Shown here: positions 30,263 through 62,685 of the stretch, in pieces
Layout: each line of letters opens with the position of its first letter
Position numbering within the stretch: position 1 is the first letter of the stretch
IMG/VR virus record: IMGVR_UViG_3300029286_003689
Location: 11,019-75,018 of that record
DNA from: a virus
Length of the DNA: 64,000 bases
Strand: one strand, 5' to 3'
Notes under the pieces: model-generated
Seen by the model: the letters and a program-made list of their open reading frames with translations, nothing else
The model's database searches: none
What the model was told of the DNA's origin: nothing
Position numbers and translations under genes: made by a program

Positions 30263-30574
30263 TTAGGTGAATGTATAGTATCGGTCTATTTTCTTTATCG
30301 TCGTGATAAAGGGTATTTCAGTCTTATATTTCTCTATCTGATCACGCAGGACGTTGGAGCCGGTAAACATCACGGATATTTTGTCGTCTAATTTAAACTG
30401 TAACGTCATGCACAGCTCGCAATTCGCTTTCTTATAATGGCTATCTTTAATTCTATAATCCAATACCGTAATCTCTCGATTAACCACGTCATCGAGTTTT
30501 ATCTTATTGCCTTCTAACGGCATAGTTTCCCGGGCGAATTCGTTAAATCGCTTGGGCTGTTTTTCCGGCGACAT
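30263..30574 (-). CDS. Small protein overlapping DGR1 RT end (candidate non-Avd accessory)
   Basis: Overlaps RT 3' end; beta-rich, not four-helix Avd-like. Confidence 0.6.
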   Translation of the reverse strand: MSPEKQPKRFNEFARETMPLEGNKIKLDDVVNREITVLDYRIKDSHYKKANCELCMTLQFKLDDKISVMFTGSNVLRDQIEKYKTEIPFITTIKKIDRYYTFT

Positions 30575-31574
30575 TTAATATCTCCTGTAGTTTGTCCAGC
30601 TGTAGCTTAAGGCCTAAGTTGTGGCAGTTGGCCCAGCGCATCCATCCGGTATATGAAGCGATGCAAGAGCGAAAGTATATAAGGGTGATCCTGCCCGCGG
30701 CCAAGAGCTTAGGTAATATCTTTAAGCGGCGCTTTACTCTTATCGCCGTTGACTTTCTTAAGAGTACGTACTTTGGAAAGTGCCGGTAACCTAAGAAGTC
30801 AACGCCTTGGGAGACCGGGAAGAGTTCGCATTTGCTCATCTTTAAGCCAAGCGTTTTATCTAAAAATATCTTTAAGTATTTAGCAATCCGGCGCAGTTCT
30901 GCTTTGTCGTTATGGAAGAACAAGAAGTCATCGCAATAGCGCACGTAATTTTTGACCTTGTAGACGTGCTTGACGTACTGATCTAACTCATTAAGGTAGA
31001 TGTTACCGAACCACTGGCTGGTGTAGTTTCCGATCGGGACGTTCTGGCCGCCGCCAATTCCGTAAATAATAGCTTTGATTAGGTTCAGAGTATCTTTGCA
31101 TTTAATCTTGCGCTGTAAGATATTAAAAAGAATGTCGTGTTTTATAGACGGGTAAAACTTAGAGATGTCGCATTTAAGGCAATACTTATTTACCCGGACA
31201 AACTCCATAGTCCGCTGGCTTCCGGCGTGCAGACCTTTACCATCGATGCAGGCGTAGGAGTCGTGAATAAACATCGGCTTGTAAATTGGTTCAAGGATGT
31301 TCATTAAAGCGTGATGGACGATTCTATCTGGTGCAAACGGTACGACGTAAATAATACGCTCCTTGGGTTCGTGGACATATTTAATACGGTATACCGATGT
31401 CTTAAATTTTTTGCTAACTAACATCTCTTGTATCCTCTTTAGGTTCTCGTCTATATTCAGGTCAAAGACTCTTACCTGGCGTTGCCAAGTTTTACCTTTA
31501 CGTGTTTTGGCATAAGCGAATTTTATATTCTCGGTTGAAGTGATTCTCTCGTAAAGATTGCCATGCCTCTTCAT
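30543..31574 (-). CDS. DGR reverse transcriptase 1
   Basis: DRIVHHA, KCDISKFY, PIGNYTSQ (DGR SQ motif), RYCDDF, DFLGY; no maturase domain. Confidence 0.95.
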   Translation of the reverse strand: MKRHGNLYERITSTENIKFAYAKTRKGKTWQRQVRVFDLNIDENLKRIQEMLVSKKFKTSVYRIKYVHEPKERIIYVVPFAPDRIVHHALMNILEPIYKPMFIHDSYACIDGKGLHAGSQRTMEFVRVNKYCLKCDISKFYPSIKHDILFNILQRKIKCKDTLNLIKAIIYGIGGGQNVPIGNYTSQWFGNIYLNELDQYVKHVYKVKNYVRYCDDFLFFHNDKAELRRIAKYLKIFLDKTLGLKMSKCELFPVSQGVDFLGYRHFPKYVLLRKSTAIRVKRRLKILPKLLAAGRITLIYFRSCIASYTGWMRWANCHNLGLKLQLDKLQEILNVAGKTAQAI

Positions 31575-31704
31575 TGTTTATATGGGTCGGAAGATTTTCG
31601 GTTTCCCTACTAACCTTCCAGCCCCTCCGTTGTGTATTTTGCCTTGTAACGGCAAGGCTAATGCATCCAGCCAGGAGTTTATTTTCTCCGCACATTCCCC
31701 TGTA

Positions 31705-31818
31705 TCCGCGCAAAACCGGCAGCCGATATTCGTATTCGTATTCCAGCGGTAGTTATTCGCATTTCGATACCGGGACCCCGCATTCGCGGCGTTACTCCAA
31801 TTACCGCCAGCCATCAGC
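31705..31818 (-). repeat. DGR1 template repeat (TR1)
   Basis: 114 bp, 9 AAY codons; matches 31906-32019 except at adenines. Confidence 0.95.
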
Positions 31819-31895
31819 AACCGATGACGCATTAGCCTGTGAAACTCTACTTTTCAAAAAACATCGCGGACGTGGTCCGTGTCCGGTCTACTTCG

Positions 31896-34232
31896 TTAAA
31901 CGGGCTCCGCGCAAAACCGGCAGCCGATACTCGAAGCCGTAGCCCAGCGGTAGTAAGTCGCAGTTCGAGACCGGGACCCCGCATTCGCGGCGTAACCCCA
32001 ATTACCGCCAGCCACCAGCTTAATATCACCACCTGAATCTGAGTTGTCCACTTCGGTAGCGCCTGGGTCAGCAGAAAAAGTTGTATAAACAGAACCTTTT
32101 GCGCCAGGTAAATTTCCCCAGTATCCGGTTGAGCCATAAGGATAATATGTTTGCGTCCTTAGCCATTGGTTCATTACACCGCAGGCATCCTCTACGCCTA
32201 TGTTTGATATCATACGCCTTGAGGCTGTGTCTACGTGGCCGCCGGTGGTCCCCGGGTCTGCTGATCCGGTAATGTTGGTCTCTTCGTTTGAACCGGCTGC
32301 TATGGCCTGGAATTCGTCATCCTCAAGCATCCGTTTCTTAACGGCTGCTCCGTCATCGGCAAAGTCCGACCAGTTCCGGGTATCTGAAATTGTTCCGCCG
32401 TAAACTGAGGTTGTGCTGCCTCCGGTCCCCGAGGCGAGGTAGATATCTACCCACTTATTAGTGCCTTCGCTAAATACCATGCCTTCCGGGTTCGATACTG
32501 GCCGGTGCAGGAGATCCCAAATTGAAGCTGGAAGAACGTCGCCAACGGCAAAGTCGGTTAAGGTATGGCCTGAAATCGTTCCTACGGCAACGCATAGCCC
32601 GTGAAAACCGCCAATCTTGCGGCTTGTTGAGGCTGAGTAGCCTGATGGCGTGGTTGAATTGGCTGATACCTTAATCGTGGGAGCTGCGCCGGACCCAGGC
32701 ACGCAGGCGTAAATATAGAAGTTTACTCCTGCTCTGTTTGCGGCCGTCCTGTAATCTGTCCCGCTTATCGTATCCCACGACGCCTCTAAGGACAAATCTA
32801 CCTCTGCTTGAGCAGTCAAGAAGTAGACTGTTCCGTTGATGTCTACGCTGAGTTTGTTGGGTGTCAAAATGATGTACCTATTTGCTGCTGTTGAGTAGGG
32901 TGTCTTTAAAGCCCACTTCTGGTCGCGCTGGTAAAGGCTTGGGTAAAGGGCTGCTAACTTTTCGGCAAGATAACCGGCTGAGGCGTCACCTGAGACGTTC
33001 TTGACTTTTTCGTCGGTTCCTCCGCCAGCAGGATTAAGTAATTCCCACCTGGTGTTAGCGAGATTATATTCTACGATTGCCACAAAGCCTGCTCCAGCGA
33101 TATCTCCGGCTGCTAAGGCTTGACCGCCTTTCTTAGCGATGGTATGAGGTGTCAGGCCGTCAGGAGCAAATGTCGGGGTTGTGGATGTATTGGCGCCGCT
33201 TGCTACAAAGAAGCAAATAGCCAAATTTGACAGAGTCATATCCGGGGTGTAGTCTGCGGTTATTGCGTCTACTGTGCCTCCCGCTGTGGCGATAGGTATA
33301 CCTGCGGCTGAGGCGGCATAGGCTGCTGCTTGGTCTCTGGCAGTCTCGGCGGCTGCTTGGGCCGTCTCGGCGTTGACTTCTGCGGCCTCTGCGTTAGTTT
33401 CCGCAGTCTCGGCGTTCGTCTCAGCGATTTCAGCGTTGGTCTCTGCTGTTTCCGCTGCGGTTTGGGCGGCCTGCGCTGCGTTCTTGGCCGTTACTGCGTC
33501 GTCTTTGGCTGTTACGGCTGTGTCTCTGGCGGATTCCGCGGCCACTTGCGCGACCTCTGCGTTAGTTTCCGCAGTCTCGGCGTTCGTCTCAGCCAACTCC
33601 GCGTTGGTCTCTGCTGTTTCCGCTGCGGTCTTTGAAGCTGCTGCTTCTGAGGCTTTGGTAGATGCTGTTGCTGCGCTCGCTGCGGCGGCGTTCTGAGAAA
33701 CTAAGGCTGCGGCCGCGCTGGCTGCTGCCGCGACTGCGGCCTCGTCGGCGTCAAGTATTGTGTTCTCTATGCCGTCTCCGTCGTCGTTCCATTTTAAGCC
33801 TTTACCCGGGTCCGGTTCGGCAACTGTAAGGTCTGTGGTCCCGCCGATCTTAGTCTTTAAGGTTCTTTTAACCTCTTCTTTTATATCCTGAACTCCGGCT
33901 ACGGCTTTATCAACCATTGCTTCAACCACTTTAGCTTGGAAACCTGCCGAGGTAGTCAAGGGTACGGCTTGCGACTTTGGAATATCCCTACCAATAACAA
34001 CGTAATAATCGTCAGAAGGAGCGTCTGCAAAAGTTACGACTCCTCCTGGTGTATCGTCGTCAAATTCAACAGTATAATCACTGCCAAGCGTCTGTAAGGT
34101 CTGAACGCCCGTTTCTACGTCCTCAAGATAGACACGGATATTTGCTTCGGCTATCAAAGCAAAACCGAATGAGAACTCCGTCGTTACTCCGTTGCCAAGC
34201 GTTTTTACTGGTGTATAATTGTCAGCTATCAT
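31896..34232 (-). CDS. Tail fibre / receptor-binding protein with Mtd-like CLec C-terminus (DGR1 target)
   Basis: T7 gp17-like N-terminus (GNGVTT.F.F.F), Ala-rich heptad stalk, WVDIYL...G.ED.CG..NQW...GGNW...GSR...IG.RF. Confidence 0.9.
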   Translation of the reverse strand: MIADNYTPVKTLGNGVTTEFSFGFALIAEANIRVYLEDVETGVQTLQTLGSDYTVEFDDDTPGGVVTFADAPSDDYYVVIGRDIPKSQAVPLTTSAGFQAKVVEAMVDKAVAGVQDIKEEVKRTLKTKIGGTTDLTVAEPDPGKGLKWNDDGDGIENTILDADEAAVAAAASAAAALVSQNAAAASAATASTKASEAAASKTAAETAETNAELAETNAETAETNAEVAQVAAESARDTAVTAKDDAVTAKNAAQAAQTAAETAETNAEIAETNAETAETNAEAAEVNAETAQAAAETARDQAAAYAASAAGIPIATAGGTVDAITADYTPDMTLSNLAICFFVASGANTSTTPTFAPDGLTPHTIAKKGGQALAAGDIAGAGFVAIVEYNLANTRWELLNPAGGGTDEKVKNVSGDASAGYLAEKLAALYPSLYQRDQKWALKTPYSTAANRYIILTPNKLSVDINGTVYFLTAQAEVDLSLEASWDTISGTDYRTAANRAGVNFYIYACVPGSGAAPTIKVSANSTTPSGYSASTSRKIGGFHGLCVAVGTISGHTLTDFAVGDVLPASIWDLLHRPVSNPEGMVFSEGTNKWVDIYLASGTGGSTTSVYGGTISDTRNWSDFADDGAAVKKRMLEDDEFQAIAAGSNEETNITGSADPGTTGGHVDTASRRMISNIGVEDACGVMNQWLRTQTYYPYGSTGYWGNLPGAKGSVYTTFSADPGATEVDNSDSGGDIKLVAGGNWGYAANAGSRSRTATYYRWATASSIGCRFCAEPV
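31906..32019 (-). repeat. DGR1 variable repeat in tail-fibre 3' end
   Basis: 13 mismatches vs TR1, all at TR A (5 G, 5 C, 3 T). Confidence 0.95.
33372..33640 (-). repeat. Heptad repeats (AETNAET) with 168-bp internal duplication in tail-fibre stalk
   Basis: CCTCTGCGTTAGTTTCCGCAGTCTCGGCGTTCGTCTCAGC at 33386 and 33554. Confidence 0.8.
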
Positions 34233-34286: not shown

Positions 34287-34292
34287 CTGGTT

Positions 34293-34624: not shown

Positions 34625-34798
34625 ATGAAAAACTTACCGGATGAGGGATTAATCTTAAGCAGGGTGCGCGAAGAAAATAAACGGTTACTTACTTCACGAT
34701 GGAAAGCCCCTGTTTTTATGATAATCTGGTTAATATTAGCTGTAATTTTATTTTTCATTGGATACGCAGTTATTTTTTCTAAGATTAATCATTCGTAG
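34625..34798 (+). CDS. 57-aa single-TM protein (not in ORF track)
   Basis: MKNLPDEG...VFMIIWLILAVILFFIGYAVIF directly after lipoprotein. Confidence 0.5.
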   Translation: MKNLPDEGLILSRVREENKRLLTSRWKAPVFMIIWLILAVILFFIGYAVIFSKINHS

Positions 34799-37700
34799 AA
34801 AGCCTCCCAAATATCTGTTCCCATTGAGTCCCGCCTGGAGTATTTAGAAGAATTGCCCTAATAAAGTTGTTTATCTTTTTATCATCATCTTCCGCTCTAA
34901 ACGATGTGCTCAACTTACGAAAAAATTTATTACTAAATTCCACGGCCGGTATCGGATTAGAACCGTATTTAAATGACTGAATTACGGTTCCAAAAAAAGG
35001 AACAGTCTGTAGTCCATTTTCTACTATTTCCTGTTCTATCGTTTTCTCTTCATCGTCTGGCTCTTCGCCACTCATAGCATCTATAAGCGCCCTGATCCCA
35101 CGTCTAATCCCTACCTCTGTAATAGTAGCGAGGCTTAGAAAGAAGAAAATATTCATCGCCTGACTCATACGACCTTCTTTTATACCAGCTCGCCATAAGT
35201 CATGTCGGACAAGGCTCCAACGGTTCAACATAAAAGACTGGAACTGAAAAATCAGCTTATTCACCGATTTATAATGTGTTATTTTATCTCGCGTTAGAAT
35301 GGCTGGGGCATCTTTAAAAAATGAACTGGATTGTGTTCTCCGAACTATCCTTTGAGCATAGTCTATCCCGTCCGGGTTAGGATTAGAAAAATCGACCTCA
35401 ATATTGTTTTCATTGCAGTATTTCTTATAGGCCCCAGCAGCGATTGAAGAAGCAGTTAAACGGTCGAGATTTTGCAATGCCCAAAAGCCTGCCTTTTCGA
35501 CTTCTGATACAACTCCCTTTCCTTCCCCAAATTCCAGAAAGGCGGGATCATCTCCAATTCTTTCTTTTACCTCTGGGAAATTATCCAAAATAAACTTTCG
35601 CCAGTCTTTATTACCGGCTATGGCGTACGCTCCTTCAAATGCGTAGTTCCCAATTAAAGCCGCCCCATCCATAAGGGCGGTCGGCTGAATAAGCGTTGAA
35701 GAAAGCCTATACGCGAGGACTGCCGCACCGGTATGCTTTCTAAGTGTGTCTAAAATATTATGCCTCTCTCCGGCGATTTTGCCTTTCCGCGCTATTAAAT
35801 CAACCCAGTCTCTCACTATTTCTTGACCTAATTCACCTACTGCTTCGGCGTATTCCTCCGAAGAAGCCAATTCTCCAAGCCACTTTGTTTCTTTACCCAC
35901 AGTTACAAAATAAGCAGCGTTATCAACGTGCTTAAGGAATACCTCCATTGCATTAAGCTTAATCTTTTGCTTCCCGCCAACCCTACGCATAGCAAAACCA
36001 TGCTTAACGTTCTTTTTAGGAGCAAGACCAAATTGTTCGACACTATCGCCAAAGCGTGATCGTATTTCAGAAGCGCTCATCTTCTCGAAATCCGTCATAA
36101 ACGGAAAGTAGTTTTTGACTGCGTAAAAAGGTTCGTTATAGACAAGACGCATAATTTCCGAAATAAGGGGCCTAAATGTTTCAAGCTTTTCTCGCATTAA
36201 GTCATAAAATTTCGTTTCTTCGTCGGTAAGTATGATATTTTCTATTTCCTGTTCGGTTAACCCCATATTGATAAGCTTCTCTGTCCCGCCTTCCTGCATT
36301 TTTGCGGCGTACACGCCTATACGTTCAAAATTAAGGACATCAAGCTTTAATTTAGTAGCCAACTCTTTAACCGTATCCTCTGCGTCATTTTTAAGCTGTA
36401 AATACGTAGTAAAAGCCTTATCTATAGTCTGTTTAAATGTTTGGTAGTTTGCCCCCGCATACTTCTTAAAACCATCAAGTAAGTCAAAAATTACATCCAT
36501 AGGAGTTATGGCGAGGTCAAGGTCTTGGAGCTTATTAAGGGCGTCTGTGTATTTATTTTTAAGTTTCTCTCCGGCATTAAGCTTTTCGCCTATTGGCGCC
36601 CGGGTAGATTCTTTTTCTTCGAGAGGCTTGGCGTCTCTCCGGATTTCTGCAAGTGCGGCCTGCTTTCTTTGTTCTTCCGCCATCTGCCGTAATCGTAACT
36701 TAGCTTGTCCGATACGCCCCAACTCATCTATCGTATCTGATAATTCCTCCAACTCTTCGGTAGATATATCGGCTAAGGGCTTGCGCTCCAGAATATCTAA
36801 TTGTTTTAATACCTCTTTAGGCATTTCTATTTCTTTACCCTCTTTTATTGCCCGTTCGATATATTCCCTTGTGCCTTGCAGGGCCTCTATGGTTTCGGTT
36901 CTATGCCCCTGTAACTCAAACTCGTTGACGAGCGCATCGATCGTCTGAGCGTATTCGACGGCTATGGTATTTGATGATTTTGCGCGTTCGGTAGATTTTT
37001 TAATATTACCCACTATCTCCGAACGTGTCTGTTTCTCCTTCATCTGACGCAGGCGCGTTACCACCTTTGGCAATTCTCTTGCCAAATCTTCTTTGGTTTG
37101 AATATTCTTTATAAGCCGTAAGAATTTACCTCTTTCATCAAGAGGAAGTCTTGCGGCTTCTATCATCTCAATAAGTTCACCCTGAACCTTTGAAATTTCT
37201 TCTTTTGTCTGTATCCGGCCTTCTTTTATCCCTTGCTCTGTGGCCTTAATCTTCTCGTTAAGAAGCGTGGTCTCGCGTTTAGTGATTAACTCCGGCCGGT
37301 TAGATTTTATCTCATCAATTAGGTCTTTTCGTGACCTTTCAAGTCCCTGTAAATACTCCTTAAGGCCAACCTCGTCATTAACCTCTACTCCGAAATGATT
37401 GCGTAGCTCCTCCATAGCCTCGTCTGGCTTTAATCCGCCCTCTTTAGTAATATAAAAAGCTGGCGTGCCTTGTAACTCTTCTTTCAGATAAGCGTCTCTG
37501 TATTTTGTTATCCTGCCCTTAAAATACTGCCGAACAGTATCAATCTCCTGTAAAGCGTCCTTTGAGATTTCTACGCGCGCCTGGCGCTCTTCCATACCCT
37601 GTATTTGGCGCTGTAATGGGGTAATGCCAGAAACATCTGGCTTAGATTTTTCAGGCTTGATAAACTCTGAAACCTGTTTTTCTTTAGGCTTAGCCTCCTC

Positions 37701-38867
37701 TTCCTTAATCCCAATACTTTCCCTAAACTGTTTTATTATCTCTCCGCGCTTATTTATGTCTTTTTCTTGTGCTAAATCCTGGACAAGCGTCTCAACTTCT
37801 TTTTTTATGGCTTCTCTTTTTATTGTCTGGGTTTCTCCTCTTGCCTCAATGACCGCTCCAGGTAATGATAAAAGACCTAAGCCGGCGGCCATCCTTGGGG
37901 CTGAATCAAGGAGCTGAGCTTTCCATTCCTCAAGAGACGGCTGGGCGTCCGGATTCTTTTCAATGGTTGCAGCAAGAGATTGACCGCCGAGTTGGATTGC
38001 GTTTTGTATCTCTTCCTCTGCGATTTCCATTCCTACCGTCTTGGCGTATTTTTTTATGAAGTTAAAGATAAAGGTTTGACCGGCTTTAGTGCTCAGGGTT
38101 TTGGCTACCTGTTTACGTATTAACCCTCCGAAAGTCTTTTTTACTACTGGACCGCCTACTAAGAACATCTCCCCAAGCTCAACAACTCCGGTAAGTGTCC
38201 CCGCTACTAAAGCTATGGGCTGGGCGGTTTTTCTGGATATGCCCTTTCCCACCATATCCAAATACATTGATCCACCTTCGCGCTCAAGGATGTTCTTTAT
38301 TACACCGTAGGCAAAACCAGTTTTCATACCAGCGACAAATGCTCCGGGAACGGTTATGATCTCTTCCGGAAAAGCTACTTGCGGGCCTGCCTGGCCTGCT
38401 ACGGCTGCAATCGTCCCAAAGCCCATGCCCATAGGAAAGCCCCATTTAAGACCTTCAAAGGTTGAACTAATCATATAAGGTATTTGCTGGGCGGCCTCTC
38501 CGATAGTGCCTTTAATCGGATGCTCCACAAGAGAAAGGTCTTTATAAGGTCCGGCCATAGTAATATGGTAATCTCTTTCTTTCGTGCCCTTTTGCAGAGC
38601 TTCTTCGTCGGACATCTTACCCTGCATAGCCGAGGCGCCGTAAAGGCTGTATGTTTTCTGAGCAGTATCCATGCCGATTTTGTATCTTATATAGTTAGGC
38701 AAAGAAACATAGTCAGGCTCTTTGACAAGAAGCTTGCCTTCTTCCAGAACACCCTCCGCAGAAACACCGCCAAACTCCGCAAATGGGTCGTTCTTAACAG
38801 GGGGCACGGATTCTTGTCCTTCTTCAAGAGCCACTCCGCCAAATTCTTCAAAAGGATTATTTGGCAC
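34785..38867 (-). CDS. Large internal virion (DNA ejection) protein
   Basis: 1360 aa helical; position equivalent to T7 gp16; RRTQ...FQSF motif. Confidence 0.7.
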   Translation of the reverse strand: MPNNPFEEFGGVALEEGQESVPPVKNDPFAEFGGVSAEGVLEEGKLLVKEPDYVSLPNYIRYKIGMDTAQKTYSLYGASAMQGKMSDEEALQKGTKERDYHITMAGPYKDLSLVEHPIKGTIGEAAQQIPYMISSTFEGLKWGFPMGMGFGTIAAVAGQAGPQVAFPEEIITVPGAFVAGMKTGFAYGVIKNILEREGGSMYLDMVGKGISRKTAQPIALVAGTLTGVVELGEMFLVGGPVVKKTFGGLIRKQVAKTLSTKAGQTFIFNFIKKYAKTVGMEIAEEEIQNAIQLGGQSLAATIEKNPDAQPSLEEWKAQLLDSAPRMAAGLGLLSLPGAVIEARGETQTIKREAIKKEVETLVQDLAQEKDINKRGEIIKQFRESIGIKEEEAKPKEKQVSEFIKPEKSKPDVSGITPLQRQIQGMEERQARVEISKDALQEIDTVRQYFKGRITKYRDAYLKEELQGTPAFYITKEGGLKPDEAMEELRNHFGVEVNDEVGLKEYLQGLERSRKDLIDEIKSNRPELITKRETTLLNEKIKATEQGIKEGRIQTKEEISKVQGELIEMIEAARLPLDERGKFLRLIKNIQTKEDLARELPKVVTRLRQMKEKQTRSEIVGNIKKSTERAKSSNTIAVEYAQTIDALVNEFELQGHRTETIEALQGTREYIERAIKEGKEIEMPKEVLKQLDILERKPLADISTEELEELSDTIDELGRIGQAKLRLRQMAEEQRKQAALAEIRRDAKPLEEKESTRAPIGEKLNAGEKLKNKYTDALNKLQDLDLAITPMDVIFDLLDGFKKYAGANYQTFKQTIDKAFTTYLQLKNDAEDTVKELATKLKLDVLNFERIGVYAAKMQEGGTEKLINMGLTEQEIENIILTDEETKFYDLMREKLETFRPLISEIMRLVYNEPFYAVKNYFPFMTDFEKMSASEIRSRFGDSVEQFGLAPKKNVKHGFAMRRVGGKQKIKLNAMEVFLKHVDNAAYFVTVGKETKWLGELASSEEYAEAVGELGQEIVRDWVDLIARKGKIAGERHNILDTLRKHTGAAVLAYRLSSTLIQPTALMDGAALIGNYAFEGAYAIAGNKDWRKFILDNFPEVKERIGDDPAFLEFGEGKGVVSEVEKAGFWALQNLDRLTASSIAAGAYKKYCNENNIEVDFSNPNPDGIDYAQRIVRRTQSSSFFKDAPAILTRDKITHYKSVNKLIFQFQSFMLNRWSLVRHDLWRAGIKEGRMSQAMNIFFFLSLATITEVGIRRGIRALIDAMSGEEPDDEEKTIEQEIVENGLQTVPFFGTVIQSFKYGSNPIPAVEFSNKFFRKLSTSFRAEDDDKKINNFIRAILLNTPGGTQWEQIFGRLSTND

Positions 38868-40317: not shown

Positions 40318-40328
40318 ATATATCCTCG

Positions 40329-40721: not shown

Positions 40722-40722
40722 G

Positions 40723-51601: not shown

Positions 51602-51619
51602 CGTCGAGCTTCCAATAAA

Positions 51620-52381: not shown

Positions 52382-52393
52382 CTCCGTCCTCCC

Positions 52394-52612: not shown

Positions 52613-53033
52613 TGACCGTCTCCTGTAAAATTATTTTACCTGTCCTTAAGTTCATCGTTCCTATCTTGCCGCAACGTTCACATTTATATTCATTGAAGAA
52701 ATGATGCTCTCCGAAAGCAAGATGTGTATAGACTACCCACCTATGCCAACCCAAAAGACAACGAATAAAAATCATCCCTTGCCCTCCTCTACCTTAAAAA
52801 TTCTGCCACTGCCGTCAAACTCAATCTTAAGCGTCTTTCCTTCTTGCTTAAGATACTCCGCTACTTCCGGCCAAAGCACGAAGCGTAAGTCTTTCGGCAC
52901 CCCCTCTATCACCAACTTAGCCATTATTTATCTCCTTTCGGTTTTTATTGTTCCCTGTAATCGTCGCACTCAAAAACTTGAGTGTCTACTTCCTGGCAGA
53001 ACTTCTTCAAAATACAGGTATCACACAGACTTT

Positions 53034-53693: not shown

Positions 53694-53699
53694 CTTCTT

Positions 53700-54593: not shown

Positions 54594-54796
54594 TTGTTTA
54601 CCCCTTTCTTCTCTGGTTGTTTTCCGGTAACTTTTTTATAAACTGGTGGGAATATGCTTCCCGGTATAAAGCAATCATCCCTCTCTATCCGCTCACATCT
54701 TTCGCAATAGCGAGTAACTTGATAGCTTAAAAAGGGAAACCAAGAAATTGATCTATACTTCCACCTATGCAGACCAATCTTGCAGAGAAAATTCAT
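54590..54796 (-). CDS. DUF1660-like small protein
   Basis: LCKIGLHRWKY...RYCERC. Confidence 0.6.
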   Translation of the reverse strand: MNFLCKIGLHRWKYRSISWFPFLSYQVTRYCERCERIERDDCFIPGSIFPPVYKKVTGKQPEKKGVNK

Positions 54797-55059
54797 TTAT
54801 TATCTTCCTCCGCCCTTTCATAAGTCGTCTCAAAGATGTCTGGCTTACAAGGATAAAATTCACCTTTGACGCCCTTGATAATATAGTCGCCTCTTTGAGC
54901 AACCATATTCCCTTCCAGAGTAGGAATAGATAAAGGCCAGGAATTCTCTCCGCCATACCCCATATCAATTACTGACGGACAAAATTCTTGTATTTCCTTA
55001 AAATTCTCTCCTGTCCACTGGACTGCCTCGATTATTACTGGCTTCTTTCTAAATTTCAT
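54793..55059 (-). CDS. Conserved phage protein
   Basis: KFRKKPV.IEA.QW...TLEG...GDYII.G..GEFYPCKPDIF..TY. Confidence 0.75.
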   Translation of the reverse strand: MKFRKKPVIIEAVQWTGENFKEIQEFCPSVIDMGYGGENSWPLSIPTLEGNMVAQRGDYIIKGVKGEFYPCKPDIFETTYERAEEDNK

Positions 55060-55060
55060 C

Positions 55061-55510
55061 TTACCCCTCCTTCAATAACTCCGAATTCTCATAGATATTG
55101 CCGATAACTTCAAAAACATAATCAGAATCCATCGCAAAATCTAATGTCCATTCCTCCCAGTCGCCAAATTCCCCTCGTATAACCCCGAAATCTCCTACTT
55201 GGGTTATTTGTACCTCTTGAGGGAAGCTTTCCTTATCATCCTCCCCTACCACCATATCGTCTGCGTGGCAAAATCTTAAGATATCTCCCTCGTAAATCTC
55301 TCGGCCGTTTCTATCCTTCCGGCCAAGATAGAAAAGAGGGGTTAGTTTTTTATAAGCCGCCTCCGGTTTATGTGGGGCTGTCATTGGACCATAAACCATA
55401 ACCTGCCCCGCCTGGGTAAGCAGAAACCAAGAAGCTGCCTCTTCCATACACTTTTCTATTTGACCGTTAATTTCAAATTCACACCATACTCTAAACTTTG
55501 CGTCGCGCAT
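55061..55510 (-). CDS. YopX family protein
   Basis: KFR.W, G.KD.NG.EIYEGDI, EVIGNIYEN. Confidence 0.85.
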   Translation of the reverse strand: MRDAKFRVWCEFEINGQIEKCMEEAASWFLLTQAGQVMVYGPMTAPHKPEAAYKKLTPLFYLGRKDRNGREIYEGDILRFCHADDMVVGEDDKESFPQEVQITQVGDFGVIRGEFGDWEEWTLDFAMDSDYVFEVIGNIYENSELLKEG

Positions 55511-55523
55511 CTTATTCCTCCTC

Positions 55524-56324
55524 TTAAAATAAACTCCCTATCGTATTCATCAACCTGCGTTCGGCCTTCTGGCAATATCTGGTATCCTTCTCTATTCCGA
55601 TAAAGCGCCGGTTTAATTCTTTACAGGCTATCAAAACAAAACCCGTCCCCATAAAGGGGTCAAGAACTATGTCGTCTTTATTGCTCCAGTAAGATACGAA
55701 TTTCTTGGCGATTGAGATTGGCTTTTGGGTAGGATGTATTCGCTCTCCGTCCTCTTTTGTGGTGTGGCCTACGATGGCTCTTACGCCCCAGTCTTTGGCC
55801 TGGCCGAGTTGGTAATTATAGGTGAGCTTTCCTCCGGGCTTCTGCCACATCCCGATAATTTCCCAGCCGTTCATCCATTTGACTTTGCGGGCCTGCGGGA
55901 CGGGGTTAGATTTTAAATCGGCGTAATATCCTTTGCATTTGAAGCCGTATTTGTCTTGCAGATACCGGCTAATGAAATTGACCTTATCCCTATCAAAATA
56001 TGAACAGAGCATACCCCCCCCTCTGAGTATTCTGACAGCTTCATCCAGCCACTTGAACGTCCAATCCATAAACTCATCAAGGGAATTAAACTTGTCCCAA
56101 TCTCCAAAATCTTGGCTGATGTCTTTACCCTTGAATTTCATTTTGTTACGGCCGCGGGTGATTACGACCTCGTTGGAGATGGCGTAGGGCGGATCCGTGA
56201 AGATAAGTTCAACCGCCTCCGCAGGGATAAGCTTCATTAACTCAAGGCTATCTCCGCAAATTACTTTGTTTATAAAATTATCTGGGTATACCAGAGTTTC
56301 TCTATCTAAACATTCCAAAGGCAT
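55524..56324 (-). CDS. N4/N6 DNA methyltransferase
   Basis: TDPPY, HPTQKP, LDPFMGTG. Confidence 0.92.
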   Translation of the reverse strand: MPLECLDRETLVYPDNFINKVICGDSLELMKLIPAEAVELIFTDPPYAISNEVVITRGRNKMKFKGKDISQDFGDWDKFNSLDEFMDWTFKWLDEAVRILRGGGMLCSYFDRDKVNFISRYLQDKYGFKCKGYYADLKSNPVPQARKVKWMNGWEIIGMWQKPGGKLTYNYQLGQAKDWGVRAIVGHTTKEDGERIHPTQKPISIAKKFVSYWSNKDDIVLDPFMGTGFVLIACKELNRRFIGIEKDTRYCQKAERRLMNTIGSLF

Positions 56325-57465
56325 CTTGTAACCTCTTCTCCGCTATCTCTATGTATTTGGGATTTAGTTCGATACCGACAAACTTCCGGGAAAGATTTCT
56401 TGCTACGAGTGCCGTTGTGCCTGAACCCATAAAAGGGTCGAGACATACCCCCCCCTGCGGGCAACCGGCTTTAATCATTGGCTCTATAAGGTTTTCGGGG
56501 AATGTTGCAAAGTGCGCCTCCTTAAAAGGATGGGTAGCGATAGTCCATACAGAGCGTTTATTGCGGCCAAGGGGATTATTCCATTTATAAGGCATAGCCA
56601 TACCCTTACCATCATTCCCGTAGCGGCCGGTATAATCCCGGGTTTCCCCTTTTGTCTTGAATTGATCGCTACCGTATTCTTCTTTTTGGTATTTGCTTTG
56701 AGGATATAGCCGCTGCCTTAATATTCCGAATGGTCTTTTCTCTTTTAAGTATGCCTCGCTTAATTTCTCGCGCTGAATTTCAAAATAATATTTCTTACTT
56801 TTGGCTAATAAAAAAATGTATTCGTGTGCTTTCGTACACCTATCTGTTACGCTCTCTGGCATAGGATTGGATTTATGCCAAATTATATCTTGACGCAGAT
56901 ACCAACCGTCGGATTGTAATGCGAAGGCAACGCGCCAAGGAATACCTACGAGGTCTTTTTGCTTTAGACCTTTGGGAATAATACTGTCGGGCATATTTCG
57001 CGTACCCCGATTCGATTGTTGTTTAGGGGTATTACAACCACGGCCACCGCCAGCGTAACTATCTCCCAAATTAAGCCATAACGTTCCTTCCTTTTTTAAT
57101 ACTCGCCTAACCTCATTAAATATCTCTACTATCTTAATAATATATTCCCCTGGAGTTTTCTCTAAGCCGAGCTGCCTATCTATACGCAGAGCACCACATT
57201 TGAAACAAGTATTTTTGTATATACCATCTCCACTATTCGCACCCTCTCTTTTCTGGCCGGTATTGGCACTTTTACTTTTATTGTCCCGATAATGATTGCA
57301 GTTTTTATCTCCACCTATCCACTCACCAGTACCGTAATCTCGCAGGCCCCAATAAGGTGGCGATGTTATAACGCAATCTATACTATTCGCAGGAAAAGTT
57401 TTAAGTGTTTCCAATGCTTCGCCAAGATAGATTTTATTTAACTCTAAGGTTAATGTTTCTTCCAT
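56302..57465 (-). CDS. N4/N6 DNA methyltransferase (SPPY, likely N4-C)
   Basis: TSPPY, HFATFP, LDPFMGSGTT; start taken at ATG 57465. Confidence 0.92.
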   Translation of the reverse strand: MEETLTLELNKIYLGEALETLKTFPANSIDCVITSPPYWGLRDYGTGEWIGGDKNCNHYRDNKSKSANTGQKREGANSGDGIYKNTCFKCGALRIDRQLGLEKTPGEYIIKIVEIFNEVRRVLKKEGTLWLNLGDSYAGGGRGCNTPKQQSNRGTRNMPDSIIPKGLKQKDLVGIPWRVAFALQSDGWYLRQDIIWHKSNPMPESVTDRCTKAHEYIFLLAKSKKYYFEIQREKLSEAYLKEKRPFGILRQRLYPQSKYQKEEYGSDQFKTKGETRDYTGRYGNDGKGMAMPYKWNNPLGRNKRSVWTIATHPFKEAHFATFPENLIEPMIKAGCPQGGVCLDPFMGSGTTALVARNLSRKFVGIELNPKYIEIAEKRLQDAFGMFR

Positions 57466-57625
57466 GATGTCCCCAATACCCAGACCACAAAACCTCGCGG
57501 CAGATCGCAAAGAAATTGCGGCTTTGTAAGTGCTGCTACGGCTTTCTGGACCGGCACCGCTACTTCACGAATGAGCAGGTCGCCGGTAGTTTCGTTTAAC
57601 ATTAAAAGGTTAAGCACGCTTTCCA

Positions 57626-58021
57626 TTACTTAATCTCACTGTTTAAATACTTCATTGTCTCAATTATCAAAAACTCCCGCGCCTCTTGATAGTTAAACTT
57701 CCCGGGAACAATCACCGCGTAATAACCTCTTTTAAGTAACTCCGCTTGCCATTCTTTTTGTTCCTCGCTGGGGTAGCTTCCCAGTTTTAACTCTGCGGCC
57801 ATACCGTGAAACTGGCCGCGGGGTTCATAAATGAACACGTCGGGGAAGCCCTTCTTGTAACCGGCGCGCTTCATTCTTATTGCTGTGTGCATTGAGGTTC
57901 TCATCCCCCCTGCTGAGGCGCAATGCAGAACGCCTAAGCTATGAAGAAAGAACGCATACCATTCTTGAAGGGGCTGCTCTTGGGACCTGCGAATAGGAAG
58001 GTCACGGTATCTATAACGCAT
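57626..58021 (-). CDS. VRR-NUC nuclease
   Basis: GFPD, ELK, S.EQ..W. Confidence 0.8.
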   Translation of the reverse strand: MRYRYRDLPIRRSQEQPLQEWYAFFLHSLGVLHCASAGGMRTSMHTAIRMKRAGYKKGFPDVFIYEPRGQFHGMAAELKLGSYPSEEQKEWQAELLKRGYYAVIVPGKFNYQEAREFLIIETMKYLNSEIK

Positions 58022-58844
58022 TGGCTAAGCCCTCCGGCATCATCCGCTTGAGAATGTCTTGCAGGTTTTCCATATCGCCACCGCGGAAGTCCGCGCCTTC
58101 GGTCTTTATCTTTAAGTGCTCGGCGTCTTGTTTACTTACCCACCACTCCGTAGAGGCTTTGGAGATTGCAGAAAGAACCCAAGGGAAATGCTCGCCTTTT
58201 ATTCCTGACCTGTTTTTAAGATAGCTTTCGCATACACGGATTAAGATTTCATCCGGCAAACGATAGTCCTCTCCGAACATAAGCAGCCGTTTCTTCTTGG
58301 CCTGTTTTCTGAACTTACCAATGAGCTGGTAAATATTGAACCCTGACTTAAAAACCTCTTCTAAAAGCTTTTTTAGTTTGGGGTTTTCCACAGGGACAGG
58401 CGGCTTTTTGCCTGTCTTTTCTTTATGTTGGTTAGGTTGGTCCGGTTGGTTAGGTGGACGGTCTAAAGTCTGACTAAAGTCCGACTTAGCCTTCTCGTGC
58501 TTGGCCTTGATGGCTTTAAGCCGTTCAGGGTTAGAGGTTCGATACTTCGCCTCTAAATACCTGCCAGCATAGTCAAGCCAGTCGTGGATTATACGCCCAT
58601 CAAGCCATTTGTGCTTTTGGAGCAGTTGGACGAACTCTTGGGGGTTACCAGAGAAACAGGCGGAATCGGCAATAAACTCATCTGTCCAATGAGAGAGATC
58701 ACCATCTTCGGCCTGTTCAAGGGCAACGTGCCATAGTGCGTGTAAGTGCCCCAGCACATAAACGGGTTTAAGGCGTAAATCAAATGCCAGAGGCTTAAGC
58801 TTCCTGTGCCTCAACAATACTGTATGAGATTCTATCCAGGGCAT
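58011..58844 (-). CDS. Putative replication initiator
   Basis: WIE.H..L..H.K...G.L..LW...IHDW..Y; repetitive linker. Confidence 0.7.
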   Translation of the reverse strand: MPWIESHTVLLRHRKLKPLAFDLRLKPVYVLGHLHALWHVALEQAEDGDLSHWTDEFIADSACFSGNPQEFVQLLQKHKWLDGRIIHDWLDYAGRYLEAKYRTSNPERLKAIKAKHEKAKSDFSQTLDRPPNQPDQPNQHKEKTGKKPPVPVENPKLKKLLEEVFKSGFNIYQLIGKFRKQAKKKRLLMFGEDYRLPDEILIRVCESYLKNRSGIKGEHFPWVLSAISKASTEWWVSKQDAEHLKIKTEGADFRGGDMENLQDILKRMMPEGLANAL

Positions 58845-59254
58845 ACAGCTTCCTTCTGTGCGGGCGCGACCTCTACGGGTTTATCTTCTGCAAGAATAGG
58901 CGCGCCGTTGTTGATAAGATGTTCTATGGTTCGTATGAGCTTAGTTGTGTTTTGACCGCGATACTGCACGGCTCTATCGTCTATGAAAACGTGATATATC
59001 GGCTTCTGTGATGTGTCCGGCGGATTGTGCTTACAGGAGTTTATGCTGTCGTAAGGGACATTGTTACGGCTTAAGTATGCCTTTAATGCCGGTGTAACCT
59101 TTCGTGTGGTCCAGATGATGATGTGGTAGCCTTTGGCCTTGAGCTGCTTCATTGCATCGATGACGTCCCAATTAGGCTTCTCAAAAACGTCTACTCCTTT
59201 CCATCCTTCGTAATGCGCGATGACCCCGTCAAAATCAAAAGCTATGACCTTCAT
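58832..59254 (-). CDS. HAD-superfamily phosphatase-like protein
   Basis: DFDGVI, WT.R, KP, IDDRA. Confidence 0.85.
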   Translation of the reverse strand: MKVIAFDFDGVIAHYEGWKGVDVFEKPNWDVIDAMKQLKAKGYHIIIWTTRKVTPALKAYLSRNNVPYDSINSCKHNPPDTSQKPIYHVFIDDRAVQYRGQNTTKLIRTIEHLINNGAPILAEDKPVEVAPAQKEAVCPG

Positions 59255-60345
59255 GCAACCTCCATTCTTAATTTATTGGTTAGCCGGTAACTGTTGGCGT
59301 GTTTAAGATGACCCATATATGACGCAAACATATCGCGGAATTTCTTAAAGTCTTTTACCTTTGCCTGGCGGAACTGGCGGATTTTTTCTTTAAGGTTGTT
59401 TATCACTCTCCGCCGGACCAGAACGTATGTCGGCCGGATGATGTAGCCTAAGAAGTCTATGCCGTTTGAGATAGGCAGGAGTTTACGGCGTTTCGGGTGA
59501 AGGCGTAGCTTAAGGCGGTTGGTGAGGAATTCTTCAATCTGAGCCTGCCAAGCGCGTAATTGCGAGGCATCTGGGGAGAGGATGACAAAATCGTCTACGT
59601 AGCGCAGATAGTAGTGCGCTTTAAGGACGTGCTTAACGTATTGGTCGAGTTCGTTCAGGTAGATGTTGGCAAAGTATTGGCTCGTCAAGTTTCCGATTGG
59701 CAGGCCGGTTCGGTTATTTTTGCCAAAGAGGCTTTTGTTGGGTGGAATGTTTAAGAGAAGTTGTTGGTCTCCTTTGGGGACGTAGGATTTTGTGCAGTCC
59801 CAGAAGAGAACCTTTTGCGTAAGCCAGAGGATGTCCGGGTCTTTTACTTTGCGCTGAATTATTGTAAACAATAATTCCTTGTCTATTGACGTAAAGAAGT
59901 CCTTAATATCCAGTTGCAGGTAATAGGCGCGGACGTGGCCGTTCTTGGTTGTTTGCCGGGTGAATTTCTCCAAGCGTTCCTTTGCCGCGTGTGTGCCTTT
60001 GCCGTCGCGGCAGGCGTAGCTGTCGTGGATGAAGATAGGCTCGTAGATAGGTTTATACTCATTGGCTAAAAGGTGATGGACGATACGGTCTCTAAAATCG
60101 GCGGCGAATATCTCTCTTTTTTTGGGTTTCTTAACAGCGAAAAGAAGCGAGCGCGAAGGATGGTAAGTCCTATTTTTAAGTTCTTGTTCAAGCTTTACAT
60201 TATTCTCTTCCGCGTTCATCTCGTATTTAAGAGCATTGAAAGTATTGCGCTTCTTACTCTGGCAATCGAGATAAGCGGTATCTACATTCCTGTAAGAGAA
60301 TTTATCGTTTTGTAAGCCGCTGGCTGGGACGGACAGGCCGAACAT
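59251..60345 (-). CDS. DGR reverse transcriptase 2
   Basis: AYLDC..KKRN, FRDRIVHH, LDIKDFF, LPIGNLTSQ, RYVDDF, DFLGY; start ATG lies inside TR2. Confidence 0.95.
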   Translation of the reverse strand: MFGLSVPASGLQNDKFSYRNVDTAYLDCQSKKRNTFNALKYEMNAEENNVKLEQELKNRTYHPSRSLLFAVKKPKKREIFAADFRDRIVHHLLANEYKPIYEPIFIHDSYACRDGKGTHAAKERLEKFTRQTTKNGHVRAYYLQLDIKDFFTSIDKELLFTIIQRKVKDPDILWLTQKVLFWDCTKSYVPKGDQQLLLNIPPNKSLFGKNNRTGLPIGNLTSQYFANIYLNELDQYVKHVLKAHYYLRYVDDFVILSPDASQLRAWQAQIEEFLTNRLKLRLHPKRRKLLPISNGIDFLGYIIRPTYVLVRRRVINNLKEKIRQFRQAKVKDFKKFRDMFASYMGHLKHANSYRLTNKLRMEVA

Positions 60346-60558: not shown

Positions 60559-60924
60559 TCAAGGTTTACCGCTTGGGGAATTCTGGCACTTTAACCATCC
60601 TTCGCACTGCTTTGCTACCTCAACAACTTTCTTGACTGCGACCTCAAAGCTTTTGAAACTGTTAAATGCTTTCCTGCGTTTGGCAAAGCGCAAGAGAATC
60701 TTCATTGCCTCCAGTTTATCGCGCACCTGAATAAGGCAGTCCTTCCGCTCTGCCTTCTTGATGGCTGAGGCGATTAAAAGGAGTGCTTCAAGAGAAAGAT
60801 TAAGCAGCTTAGTCCCGACGGTATATTTGTGGCGTTTAGCGAAATAGCAGACTATCTCATCAATATACTCCGCAAGGTCTAAGGCACTCTTATAGATTGG
60901 AAGATTCTCGTATGCGCTTTCCAT
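60559..60924 (-). CDS. avd: Avd accessory variability determinant (four-helix bundle)
   Basis: LPIYK...F...HKYTVG...KQ..GWLK; basic; between target and TR. Confidence 0.88.
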   Translation of the reverse strand: MESAYENLPIYKSALDLAEYIDEIVCYFAKRHKYTVGTKLLNLSLEALLLIASAIKKAERKDCLIQVRDKLEAMKILLRFAKRRKAFNSFKSFEVAVKKVVEVAKQCEGWLKCQNSPSGKP

Positions 60925-60948: not shown

Positions 60949-61341
60949 TCAATTCACTGGCATGGGACGGACAGGCCGAACATAATAAGAGTTGCCCTTA
61001 ATGTAGTAGCCCACGAGGCCGAAGCCATAACTCACGATGCGAGCGTAGCTCTTACTCCAGGCAACCTCGGTCTTAGTTGCGTAGTAATCGTCCGTTTTGG
61101 TATCGGCGAAGATCGGGAAGAAGCAGGGGTCGCCTTCAAAGTTAATAATGGACGTTGCCTCCGCGGCCGTTGGTTCTTCTCCTCCGAGTTTGGCGCAGAA
61201 TTCTTTTCTGTCCTCCGGACCCATTATCCTGTCAGAGCTGGGGCCGTGCTCTTTTCTCTCCCTGTAATCCCTTATCCAGCCGTCGGGAAGTTTCTCAAAC
61301 CTTGCCGGATCGTTTACGTCAATAACTACCTTTACTTCCAT
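60949..61341 (-). CDS. DGR2 target 1: stand-alone Lcl/DUF1566-like CLec protein (130 aa)
   Basis: ATG 61341 with AGGAGG RBS; RF..LPDG.I.D, PT..E..SI, ends YVRPVR; contains VR. Confidence 0.85.
   Translation of the reverse strand: MEVKVVIDVNDPARFEKLPDGWIRDYRERKEHGPSSDRIMGPEDRKEFCAKLGGEEPTAAEATSIINFEGDPCFFPIFADTKTDDYYATKTEVAWSKSYARIVSYGFGLVGYYIKGNSYYVRPVRPMPVN
60964..61068 (-). repeat. DGR2 variable repeat VR-a
   Basis: 17 mismatches vs TR2, all at TR A (7 G, 8 T, 2 C). Confidence 0.95.
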
Positions 61342-61495
61342 GCCTCTCCTCCTTGTTAAAAAGTTACGCAGGTGTTTGCTAAGGCGTAGGCTAACCAAAG
61401 CAAGCCCCTGCGTATGTCCCCCGTTATTAAATAGACTATGCCTGCGCCTATACAGGCCACAATTACCAGAAGCGGAAATATCTTCTCTTTAGTTA

Positions 61496-61795
61496 TCATG
61501 CGTAAGCAAACGTCCTTTGGCTTTCCATCGTAATCGGCGTGTTGCGCGAGATAAAGATACGCACGGCCTCAATATGGCTGCAATACTTATTCTTGTGAAA
61601 CCCCTGACAGTTGCAGCGGTAGGTATCGTCGGGAAACTTCTGGATGGTGTACGTGTGAATGTTGTAGCCGAGAATGGGCTTGCATATCCAGGTATTCTCT
61701 CCGGTCTGGACAATGCAGTCTTTCTCAAGGAATTTGTTTGCCTTATCATTCATACGCTGCCGCGACTCCGAAGTTAAAAAAGCTTGCTCTTTCAC
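61496..61795 (-). CDS. SWIM zinc-finger protein
   Basis: PI.GYN..TY, CNCQG...CSH; homologue of 19411-19710. Confidence 0.75.
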   Translation of the reverse strand: MKEQAFLTSESRQRMNDKANKFLEKDCIVQTGENTWICKPILGYNIHTYTIQKFPDDTYRCNCQGFHKNKYCSHIEAVRIFISRNTPITMESQRTFAYA

Positions 61796-61810
61796 GTTCT
61801 TGCCTCCTTT

Positions 61811-62122
61811 CTATGCCTGCGGCTGCGGGTTATACTTCTCCCACTTCTTCAAGAAGAGCGCGCCTTTGGGCTGCTTATACTCTCCGAATTCCTGCTTAGA
61901 TTTACATTTAGGACAGTAGAGTTCCACGTAGATATACTGGCCGTCTTTGGTCTGCCTGGCGCGAAGCTCTATATCTTTATCGTTCTGACAGATACCACAT
62001 ACCCCCTTAAGCTGCATAAAGGGCGTGGCCTTGAGCAGGGCTTCTTTAAGGTCTTGCTCTCCGTCAAACTTGATGGTGAGTTGGGTGGTGCAATTTATCT
62101 TTTTCGTTACCGTAATATCCAT
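61811..62122 (-). CDS. Small Zn-binding protein
   Basis: CxxC...CxxC; ATG 62122 with AAGGAGGT RBS. Confidence 0.6.
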   Translation of the reverse strand: MDITVTKKINCTTQLTIKFDGEQDLKEALLKATPFMQLKGVCGICQNDKDIELRARQTKDGQYIYVELYCPKCKSKQEFGEYKQPKGALFLKKWEKYNPQPQA

Positions 62123-62154
62123 GCTTACCTCCTTAAATTTAATTGTCAAAAAGT

Positions 62155-62685
62155 CTAAATACTGGCTGGACGGACAGGCCGAACATAATATTTGTAGTCC
62201 TTATTGTGGTAGTCCACGTAGCCGTCGCCATAACCCACGATGCGAGCGTAGCTCTTATCCCAGGCAACCTCTTCGTTCGTCCAGTAACCGGCCTCTTTTG
62301 TGTCTTTAAAGATAGTGGTATCTATCTGGGGACCGTTGGCTTTATTTTTCACTAAGGAGAAGCCCAACTGCGGCGAGTGTAAGAACCAGCCCTTATGACC
62401 GGCGAAGCTAAGTTCGGCGCAAGCTATCTTTGACTCTTCCCAAGGCATACCCTCTTTGAAGTGATTTGGCAGGTCCGTGTGGGGAAGGGTTACGAGATAC
62501 ATATTGTGCCAGGTATCAAATACTGTGCCGTCGTGGTTGTCAATGTAGCGCGGTTCCGGATAGTCTTTAACCTTGATAATCTTTACGTGTCTCTGTGCTA
62601 AGATTGCCGAGATATCTCTGGCTGCTCCCTCAAGGTTGGTGCGGTCTTTTAATACTTTCAAAATCTGGTTCTGATTCAGTTGCAT
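62155..62685 (-). CDS. DGR2 target 2: Lcl/DUF1566-like CLec protein (176 aa)
   Basis: RYIDNHDGTV.D, M.WEE...AC..L.FAGH.GW, YW, YVRPVR; contains VR. Confidence 0.88.
   Translation of the reverse strand: MQLNQNQILKVLKDRTNLEGAARDISAILAQRHVKIIKVKDYPEPRYIDNHDGTVFDTWHNMYLVTLPHTDLPNHFKEGMPWEESKIACAELSFAGHKGWFLHSPQLGFSLVKNKANGPQIDTTIFKDTKEAGYWTNEEVAWDKSYARIVGYGDGYVDYHNKDYKYYVRPVRPASI
62168..62271 (-). repeat. DGR2 variable repeat VR-b
   Basis: 11 mismatches vs TR2, all at TR A (7 G, 3 T, 1 C). Confidence 0.95.

Follow-up and report, generated by a model that had tools for sequence, protein, structure and literature searches.

Two distinct diversity-generating retroelements in one BPP-1-like prophage from a metagenome

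Introduction

Diversity-generating retroelements (DGRs) are, to our knowledge, the only system in nature by which prokaryotes and their viruses hypermutate proteins in a targeted manner. The way in which the reverse transcriptase (RT) of such an element recognises its own template and target is only partly understood. The subject of this paper is a pair of DGRs, called DGR1 and DGR2, located in a window of 64,000 nucleotides (64 kb) of the IMG/VR provirus record IMGVR_UViG_3300029286_003689. This window is the final 64 kb (positions 11,019 to 75,018) of the 75,018-bp record. The whole record consists of two tandem BPP-1-like prophages, A and B, and all features of DGR1 and DGR2 are found on the minus strand of prophage B. 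The best explanation of the observations as a whole is very probably that prophage B carries two self-sufficient DGRs, which belong to different lineages and to different architectural classes. What is new here is the combination, and the two kinds that are combined are both known.

The prototype of these elements is that of phage BPP-1, with the order mtd-avd-template repeat (TR)-brt. DGR1 is found in the same place as the BPP-1 element, at the end of the late operon beside small lysis-side genes and the att site. Phage B is also similar to BPP-1 in the Mtd-homologous target, in the adenine-only changes between TR and variable repeat (VR), and in its whole late-gene order. However, the avd gene of BPP-1 is located between the target and the TR, while DGR1 has no avd and is followed, after the RT gene, by a conserved open reading frame (ORF) with a predicted OB fold. 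In addition, BPP-1 has a single DGR, while phage B has a second, unrelated DGR in the early region.

Phage B can also be compared with Quimbyvirus (Benler et al. 2021, Microbiome, PMC8008677), in which one phage DGR has a structural and a non-structural target. In both cases a tail-module protein and a lectin-fold protein, the latter encoded outside the structural module in the neighbourhood of methyltransferase and nuclease genes, are hypermutated. However, Quimbyvirus has one RT and one TR for its two VRs, while phage B has two complete cassettes, whose TRs are unrelated and whose RT lineages and accessory proteins differ.

The architecture of DGR2 is found in three cultured temperate phages, Shewanella phage vB_Sb_QDWS (locus L108), Burkholderia phage Magia (L109) and Pseudomonas phage LPPA56 (L110). 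They contain two small tandem targets of 118-220 amino acid residues, avd, TR and RT, with mismatches at adenines only, and the DGR has recombination, methylase and integrase genes nearby, in the early or lysogeny region. The RT2 type has the RTs of these phages as its sister group. These phages differ from phage B in having Proteobacteria as hosts, a single RT locus each and no fibre DGR. The Magia record carries the annotation 'lectin fold domain protein; potential DGR target', and no publication on the three phages turned up in the literature searched.

In the classification of Wu et al. 2018 (PMC5758913), DGR1 fits Architecture A1 (target-TR-RT, Avd-less lineage) and DGR2 fits B1 (avd-TR-RT) with two targets. 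The same survey found multiple DGRs in about 10% of bacterial genomes, and two classes inside one phage were not reported there. No report of two distinct DGRs in one phage genome was found in the searchable literature, and no such case among deposited phage genomes. Literature searches for DGRs in Omnitrophota, the phylum discussed below as the probable host of phage B, likewise gave no report of a dual-DGR phage.

The two cassettes

The repeat search revealed two independent repeat families. One of them consists of positions 31705-31818 (TR1) and 31906-32019 (VR1), and the other of positions 60327-60429 (TR2), 60965-61067 (VR2a) and 62168-62270 (VR2b). Two complete DGRs were found in prophage B where the original prediction had placed them, each with adenine-only mismatches between TR and VR and with an intact RT gene.

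The complete DGR1 cassette (30263-34232) contains the fibre gene, TR1, the RT gene and a small ORF called orf103, in the order target-TR-RT-ORF that had been proposed for it. It has no avd, and there is no room for one between the fibre gene and TR1. The target is a protein of 778 residues (31896..34232) with a Pfam mtd_2nd match (3.5e-16), ending in ...SIGCRFCAEPV*. Its C-terminal half is homologous to BPP-1 Mtd with 29% identity over 214 residues (E 3e-18), and a relative of this fibre in another phage, described below as G012:C43, belongs to a PHROG tail-protein family. The target is thus predicted, from its homologues, to be a receptor-binding tail fibre. The Mtd homology agrees with the outside function (host recognition) claimed for this target in the original prediction.

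VR1 is located at the C-terminus of the fibre, ending 8 codons ahead of the stop, and the Mtd-homologous part is upstream of it; in Mtd the VR domain is folded as a C-type lectin (CLec). The VR1 domain itself has no sequence match in Pfam or the Protein Data Bank (PDB). TR1 starts about 78 nt past the fibre stop and contains 27 adenines and 9 AAY codons. A base-by-base comparison of TR1 and VR1 gave 13 mismatches in 114 nt, and all 13 are located at adenines of TR1. The probability of this by chance is (27/114)^13 = 7e-9, or approximately 1e-8. A GC-rich, adenine-free stretch of 21 nt at the 3' end, TCGGCTGCCGGTTTTGCGCGG, is identical in TR1 and VR1, with divergence beyond it, as in an initiation of mutagenic homing (IMH) sequence. 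Only a short hairpin of 5 bp occurs downstream of VR1. Codon analysis of TR1 gives 17 adenine-bearing codons and about 10^15 protein variants.

The reverse transcriptase RT1 (30543..31574, 343 residues) has a Pfam RVT_1 match (3.9e-18) and 37% identity to BPP-1 Brt. Its ORF is intact and the catalytic motifs are present (IGNYTSQWFGN and the predicted YCDD). In the proposed mechanism, RT1 would make errors specifically at adenines when copying TR1 RNA, and VR1 would be replaced by the resulting cDNA (mutagenic retrohoming). DGR1 would in this way diversify the receptor-binding tip of the tail fibre.

A separate feature of the fibre gene is found in its N-terminal half, where tandem 21-nt repeats at 33305-33650 encode an Ala/Glu/Thr-rich heptad stalk of AETAETN-like units.

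The complete DGR2 cassette (59251-62685) belongs to the early region and is flanked there by an exonuclease gene and the replication genes. It contains target b, a backbone gene, target a, avd, TR2 and the RT gene, which agrees with the predicted order target..target-avd-TR-RT. Target b (62155..62685) is a stand-alone Lcl_C/DUF1566 protein of 176 residues, ending in ...YYVRPVRPASI*, with VR2b at its C-terminus. Its Pfam Lcl_C match (4.4e-14) scores 53 bits against a cut-off of 34.9 bits and covers the VR. Target a (60949..61398), which contains VR2a, has 149 residues from a TTG start or 130 from the first ATG. In the VR domain it shares 60% identity with target b, and its own Lcl_C match (1e-5) is below the cut-off. 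Both targets are essentially bare Lcl_C/DUF1566 lectin-fold domains. Their Atlas neighbours are all Lcl_C members, which are small viral and bacterial proteins, and sequence searches of the DGR targets against the PDB returned nothing useful.

The gene between the two targets (61496..61795, 99 residues) is a conserved early gene of the phage backbone and not part of the DGR. It is 88% identical over its full length to the protein of G012:C43, has a homologue in prophage A at 19411-19710, and shows a weak SWIM zinc-finger match below the cut-off.

The avd gene (60559..60924) codes for the accessory four-helix-bundle protein. It matches Pfam bAvd (1.9e-15, 57.7 bits against a 40-bit cut-off) and, over its full length, NCBIfam DivGenRetAVD (1.2e-12, below the equivalog cut-off). 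It is the sole Avd on the 75-kb contig, with a single PF22296 match in the whole record. TR2 contains 34 adenines and 9 AAY codons, and its 3' end overlaps the start codon region of the RT2 gene. An adenine-free stretch, GTTCGGCCTGTCCGTCC, follows TR2 and is common to VR2a and VR2b. In the base-by-base comparison all core mismatches were found at TR2 adenines, 16/16 for VR2a and 10/10 for VR2b, and with 34 adenines in TR2 the chance expectation is about 1e-8 and about 1e-5, respectively. Codon analysis gives 20 adenine-bearing codons in TR2 and about 10^19 protein variants per target. RT2 (59251..60345, 364 residues) has a Pfam RVT_1 match (1.3e-20), an intact ORF with the catalytic motifs IGNLTSQYFAN and YVDD, and 31% identity to BPP-1 Brt.

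By the same retrohoming route, DGR2 would diversify two small proteins (130-176 residues) on the lectin-fold face at their C-terminus. No signal peptide or hydrophobic segment was seen in the translations of the DGR2 targets. Taken together with the position in the early region, this would be consistent with the inside function that had been proposed for them, and an intracellular, conflict-related role may be suggested.

In a close relative of the early region of phage B (L104, G011:C38), where positions 3393-5176 were compared with 60940-62652 of the window, the order of the two small target genes with respect to avd is reversed. Such a swap suggests recombination between the VR repeats.

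The sequences of the two elements suggest that both could be active at present. It is unlikely that only one of them is active and that the other is a relic with frozen VR differences. A single consensus sequence cannot reveal activity, and VR2b has fewer substitutions (10) than VR2a (16). However, the two RT ORFs are intact and have retained the catalytic motifs, and the TR/VR pairs contain zero non-adenine mismatches over 103-114 nt, of which a long-dead element would have gained some. In addition, both cassette types are conserved in dozens of relatives, where the pattern is the same.

One related locus (L028) was considered as an isogenic comparison for the activity of DGR1. Its RT is 99% identical to RT1 at the amino acid level, but it was rejected with 10 differences in the TR and a target identity of 72%.

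Continuity of prophage B and recurrence of the pair

The backbone of phage B between the two DGRs (34785..59254, minus strand) was assigned with PHROG and Pfam and follows a BPP-1-like order. From the 64-kb end downwards on the minus strand, the genes are an exonuclease, DGR2, a HAD/PNK-like phosphatase, a replication initiator and a resolvase-like gene. These are followed by two DNA methyltransferases, a DHH phosphoesterase, a peptide deformylase, terS, terL, the portal and the major head protein. The last section contains tail tubular proteins A and B, internal virion proteins, a protein of 1360 residues, DGR1, five small ORFs and the junction with prophage A. No integrase was found between the cassettes among the ORFs scanned. 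The region between the cassettes is one co-directional phage genome, and prophage B is a temperate podovirus with the BPP-1 layout. A megablast comparison of the 25-kb backbone with GenBank phages gave zero matches, and nothing further came from a Pfam scan of the large tail proteins and of the small ORFs at the late end. The distance of about 28 kb that had been given for the two cassettes holds from RT to RT (28.7 kb), while the gap between the cassettes is 25 kb.

The junction between prophage A and the late-gene end of prophage B is located at 27730..28056, where the similarity of two related phages to phage B ends. For one of them, G012:C43, the similarity extends down to 28278 and then ceases, and for the other, G001, it extends down to 28056. 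The junction adjoins the tyrosine integrase gene of prophage A (26737-27729, plus strand, Pfam). This gene and a plus-strand helix-turn-helix (HTH) gene beside the junction were assigned to prophage A.

Relatives of the two cassettes were fetched from IMG/VR, with 27 loci of the RT2 type and 60 of the RT1 type, together with genomes from GTDB. Both cassette types were found on a single contig in two other assemblies, G001 and G012:C43. The first of these is 43.6 kb long (CheckV 100%), with an RT1-type protein of 87% and an RT2-type protein of 72% amino acid identity, and the mismatches located at TR adenines are 17/18 and 14/14. It is a podovirus with a backbone that resembles prophage A and not B, and the two genes on either side of its DGR2-type cassette have homologues that are direct neighbours in prophage A. 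The second (JAPLLY010000054.1; loci L101 and L102) is a 38.3-kb contig of an Omnitrophota metagenome-assembled genome (MAG) from Lac Pavin, with an RT1-type identity of 90% and an RT2-type identity of 76%. It is a siphovirus with a tape measure, a J-like fibre, HK97-type head genes and a serine integrase, and it demonstrates strong mosaicism across tail morphotypes. Since the backbones differ around the same pair, the cassettes appear to behave as separate mobile modules, which have been combined on at least three backbones.

Apart from this, it was observed that the cassettes of the temperate phage G012:C43 have 76-94% protein identity to those of phage B, with unrelated structural genes.

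The coherent gene order and the recurrence of the pair uphold the placement of both cassettes in one prophage. An assembly chimera, in which cassettes of different phages were joined at a shared sequence, might be considered in view of a 75-kb record that holds two phage genomes and starts inside a VR, and of the many related contigs that break at TR/VR repeats. However, the 25 kb between the cassettes have a coherent BPP-1 gene order, and no repeat longer than the TR/VR pairs connects the early and late halves. Misassembly is very unlikely because the pair recurs on single contigs in G001 and G012:C43, two independent assemblies from other samples.

The combination is uncommon in the collections that were sampled. 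Among 20 IMG/VR records longer than 30 kb that carry one of the types, only G001 has two RTs. The RT2 type occurs in 5 and the RT1 type in 2 of the 401 sampled genomes of the phylum, and both were found on one contig only in G012. GenBank phage records matching RT2 (n=164) and RT1 (n=151) have exactly one RT locus each. Loci of both types were found on contigs of more than 150 kb in Omnitrophota MAGs, and the host of phage B is probably an Omnitrophota bacterium.

Accessory proteins of the two lineages

The two types of loci have different arrangements. RT2-type relatives almost always contain one or two small targets (140-265 codons), avd, a TR overlapping the RT start, and the RT gene. In RT1-type loci a single large target resembling a fibre is followed by a TR, located about 200 nt past the VR, and then by the RT gene. 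The RT1-type gene is, in 51/59 loci, directly followed by a homologue of orf103, including the locus of the Methanosarcinales-associated virus vir525.

In phage B, orf103 (30263..30574, minus strand) codes for a small protein of 103 residues with a predicted OB fold and overlaps the RT1 stop by 32 nt. Its AlphaFold2 (AF2) model has a predicted local distance difference test (pLDDT) score of 86.9 and consists of one helix followed by a five-stranded barrel. A structural search with this model (wide VIA) gave single-stranded DNA-binding protein (SSB) and other OB folds with Z of 5-7. Foldseek gave weak OB-fold rows only, and the Atlas lead, the SSB of phi29, is consistent with the OB-fold matches. 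Profile comparison showed no relation of orf103 to Avd or to bbp4 of BPP-1. Wu et al. 2018 (PMC5758913) list accessory genes of the classes Avd, HRDC, MSL and CH1, and no OB-fold gene is among them. These observations allow us to propose orf103 as a candidate accessory factor, not described before, of the RT1-type lineage that lacks Avd, and DGR1 probably has its own nucleic-acid-binding cofactor.

It is highly unlikely that the Avd-less DGR1 borrows the Avd of DGR2, so that the two cassettes would be one functionally coupled system with two RTs. Brt of BPP-1 needs Avd (PMC5758913) while DGR1 has none, and the avd of DGR2 is the only one on the contig. However, no bAvd was found anywhere in four complete RT1-only phages with adenine-only VRs, while G001, used as the positive control, showed the DGR2-linked one. 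A tblastn search for Avd in the RT1-type loci gave 0/60 hits, in contrast to the wide retention of orf103. Avd-less DGR lineages have already been described, and about 26% of curated DGRs have no avd (PMC5758913), so that its absence does not disqualify DGR1. Since the RT1-only phages with adenine-only VRs have no bAvd, DGR1 appears to be independent of the Avd of DGR2.

Separate origin of the two cassettes

TR1 and TR2 show no similarity to each other, as had been predicted; the best local alignment has a score of 11, compared with 8.4 +/- 1.8 for shuffled sequences. RT1 and RT2 are 36% identical. Both contain the IGxxxSQ motif of DGR-type RTs, and both are below the cut-offs of the group II, retron, Abi and Drt models. 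The original prediction had stated that the RTs differ in length and in the N-terminus. The difference in length stands, but it is mainly due to an internal insertion of about 26 residues in RT2 and not to the N-terminus.

The closest relatives of the two enzymes are found in different phages. RT1 has 56% identity to the RT of vir525 and 43% to that of the crAss-like phage cr55_1, while RT2 has 40-42% identity to the RTs of Shewanella, Burkholderia and Pseudomonas phages. In a tree of 90 RT sequences, the two types are located on opposite sides of a branch with 97% support. A second tree of 35 sequences was calculated with the LG+C20+F+G4 model. In this tree the RT2 type groups with the Shewanella, Burkholderia and Pseudomonas phage DGR RTs (support 100/100), and the RT1 type groups with vir525 and cr55_1 (100/94). 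A joint clade of RT1 and RT2 is 101 log-likelihood units worse and is rejected by the approximately unbiased (AU) test with p-AU of 2.6e-6. The two distinct and well-supported lineages are in agreement with the separate acquisition that had been suggested earlier, and a separate origin of DGR1 and DGR2 is supported by these comparisons. Copying of one cassette from the other inside the phage, followed by divergence, has a negligible probability, as the short stretches of 70-76% DNA similarity between the RT genes have to be set against the low identity of the RTs, their closer relatives in unrelated phages, the AU test, and accessory genes, TRs and target families that are all different.

Each RT would be expected to act on its own template only, because the TRs and the adenine-free homing ends are unrelated, because the accessory proteins differ (Avd and the OB-fold protein), and because each cassette type operates alone in other phages.

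Several points weigh against the view that prophage B holds two self-sufficient DGRs of different lineages, or against parts of it. The source record comes from the assembly of a metagenome, and the contig end at 64000 cuts prophage B short, a few kb past DGR2. The group examined in the AU test was chosen after the first tree had been seen. No hairpin downstream of the VRs is stronger than those in shuffled sequence. The search for Avd in the RT1-type loci was made with one Pfam model and one tblastn query, and a very divergent Avd could escape it. The role proposed for orf103 is drawn from its conserved position and from a fold match of middle level, with Z below 8. Finally, the small targets of DGR2 could be minor virion components instead of intracellular proteins.

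Significance

With two unrelated DGRs in a phage of 40 kb, specificity and orthogonality are put to a natural test, as one cell would contain a pair each of RTs, TR RNAs and homing ends, together with two different predicted cofactors. Such a natural pair is what the engineering of two independent in vivo diversification channels would want. The cassettes targeting the fibre and those of the early region appear to be separate modules that move between the podoviruses and the siphoviruses of a host phylum on which little work has been done. What the small non-structural targets do can be examined in the cultured Shewanella, Burkholderia and Pseudomonas phages, which offer experimental systems ready for use. 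The value of the locus therefore lies in the natural, presumably orthogonal pair, in the conserved predicted OB-fold ORF of the Avd-less lineage and in the recurrent small targets of the early region.

A more far-reaching interpretation can be put forward only tentatively, and it is somewhat doubtful. Phage B might contain a natural orthogonal two-channel system, in which an OB-fold cofactor, representing a fifth accessory class, serves one channel, while an Avd lineage diversifies small intracellular lectin-fold binders in the other. If this were true, orf103 as an SSB-like cofactor of an Avd-independent lineage would mean a different biochemistry of retrohoming. The small binders might then serve in conflicts between phage and host or between phages, for example by binding variable proteins of defence systems or of superinfecting phages, in phages of both Omnitrophota and Proteobacteria. 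The specificity of entry and the specificity of intracellular recognition would evolve independently and simultaneously.

Other observations on the record and its relatives

Contigs ending less than 800 nt upstream of the RT gene, at the TR/VR repeats, were found for 9/27 loci of the RT2 type and 11/60 loci of the RT1 type (L002-L004, L010, L013, L018, L019, L031, L032, L038, L086 and others). Such ends would be the consequence of assemblies being broken by the hypervariation of the VR or by the repeat as such, and phage genomes that carry DGRs would therefore be systematically fragmented there.

The peptide deformylase gene of phage B is located at 51953-52381, just upstream of terS. This enzyme points to a bacterial and not an archaeal host.

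Prophage A has a further fibre of the Mtd type, and bases 1-133 of the contig, 11 kb before the start of the window, are inside its VR. This VR is 80% identical to the VR1 region (positions 31705-32028 were compared) and has the 3' homing end in common with it. The possibility that it is a product of TR1 was ruled out, because 12 of its 29 mismatches to TR1 are located at non-adenine positions. Judging from this pattern, the fibre VR of prophage A must have had its own TR and RT, which would have been lost beyond the start of the contig.

The early region of prophage A contains a tRNA-Met gene (21921-21994) and an AAA-ATPase gene (22074-23642) beside a YqaJ/RecT pair. The same neighbourhood of RecT and AAA-ATPase is present in Burkholderia phage Magia, upstream of its DGR.

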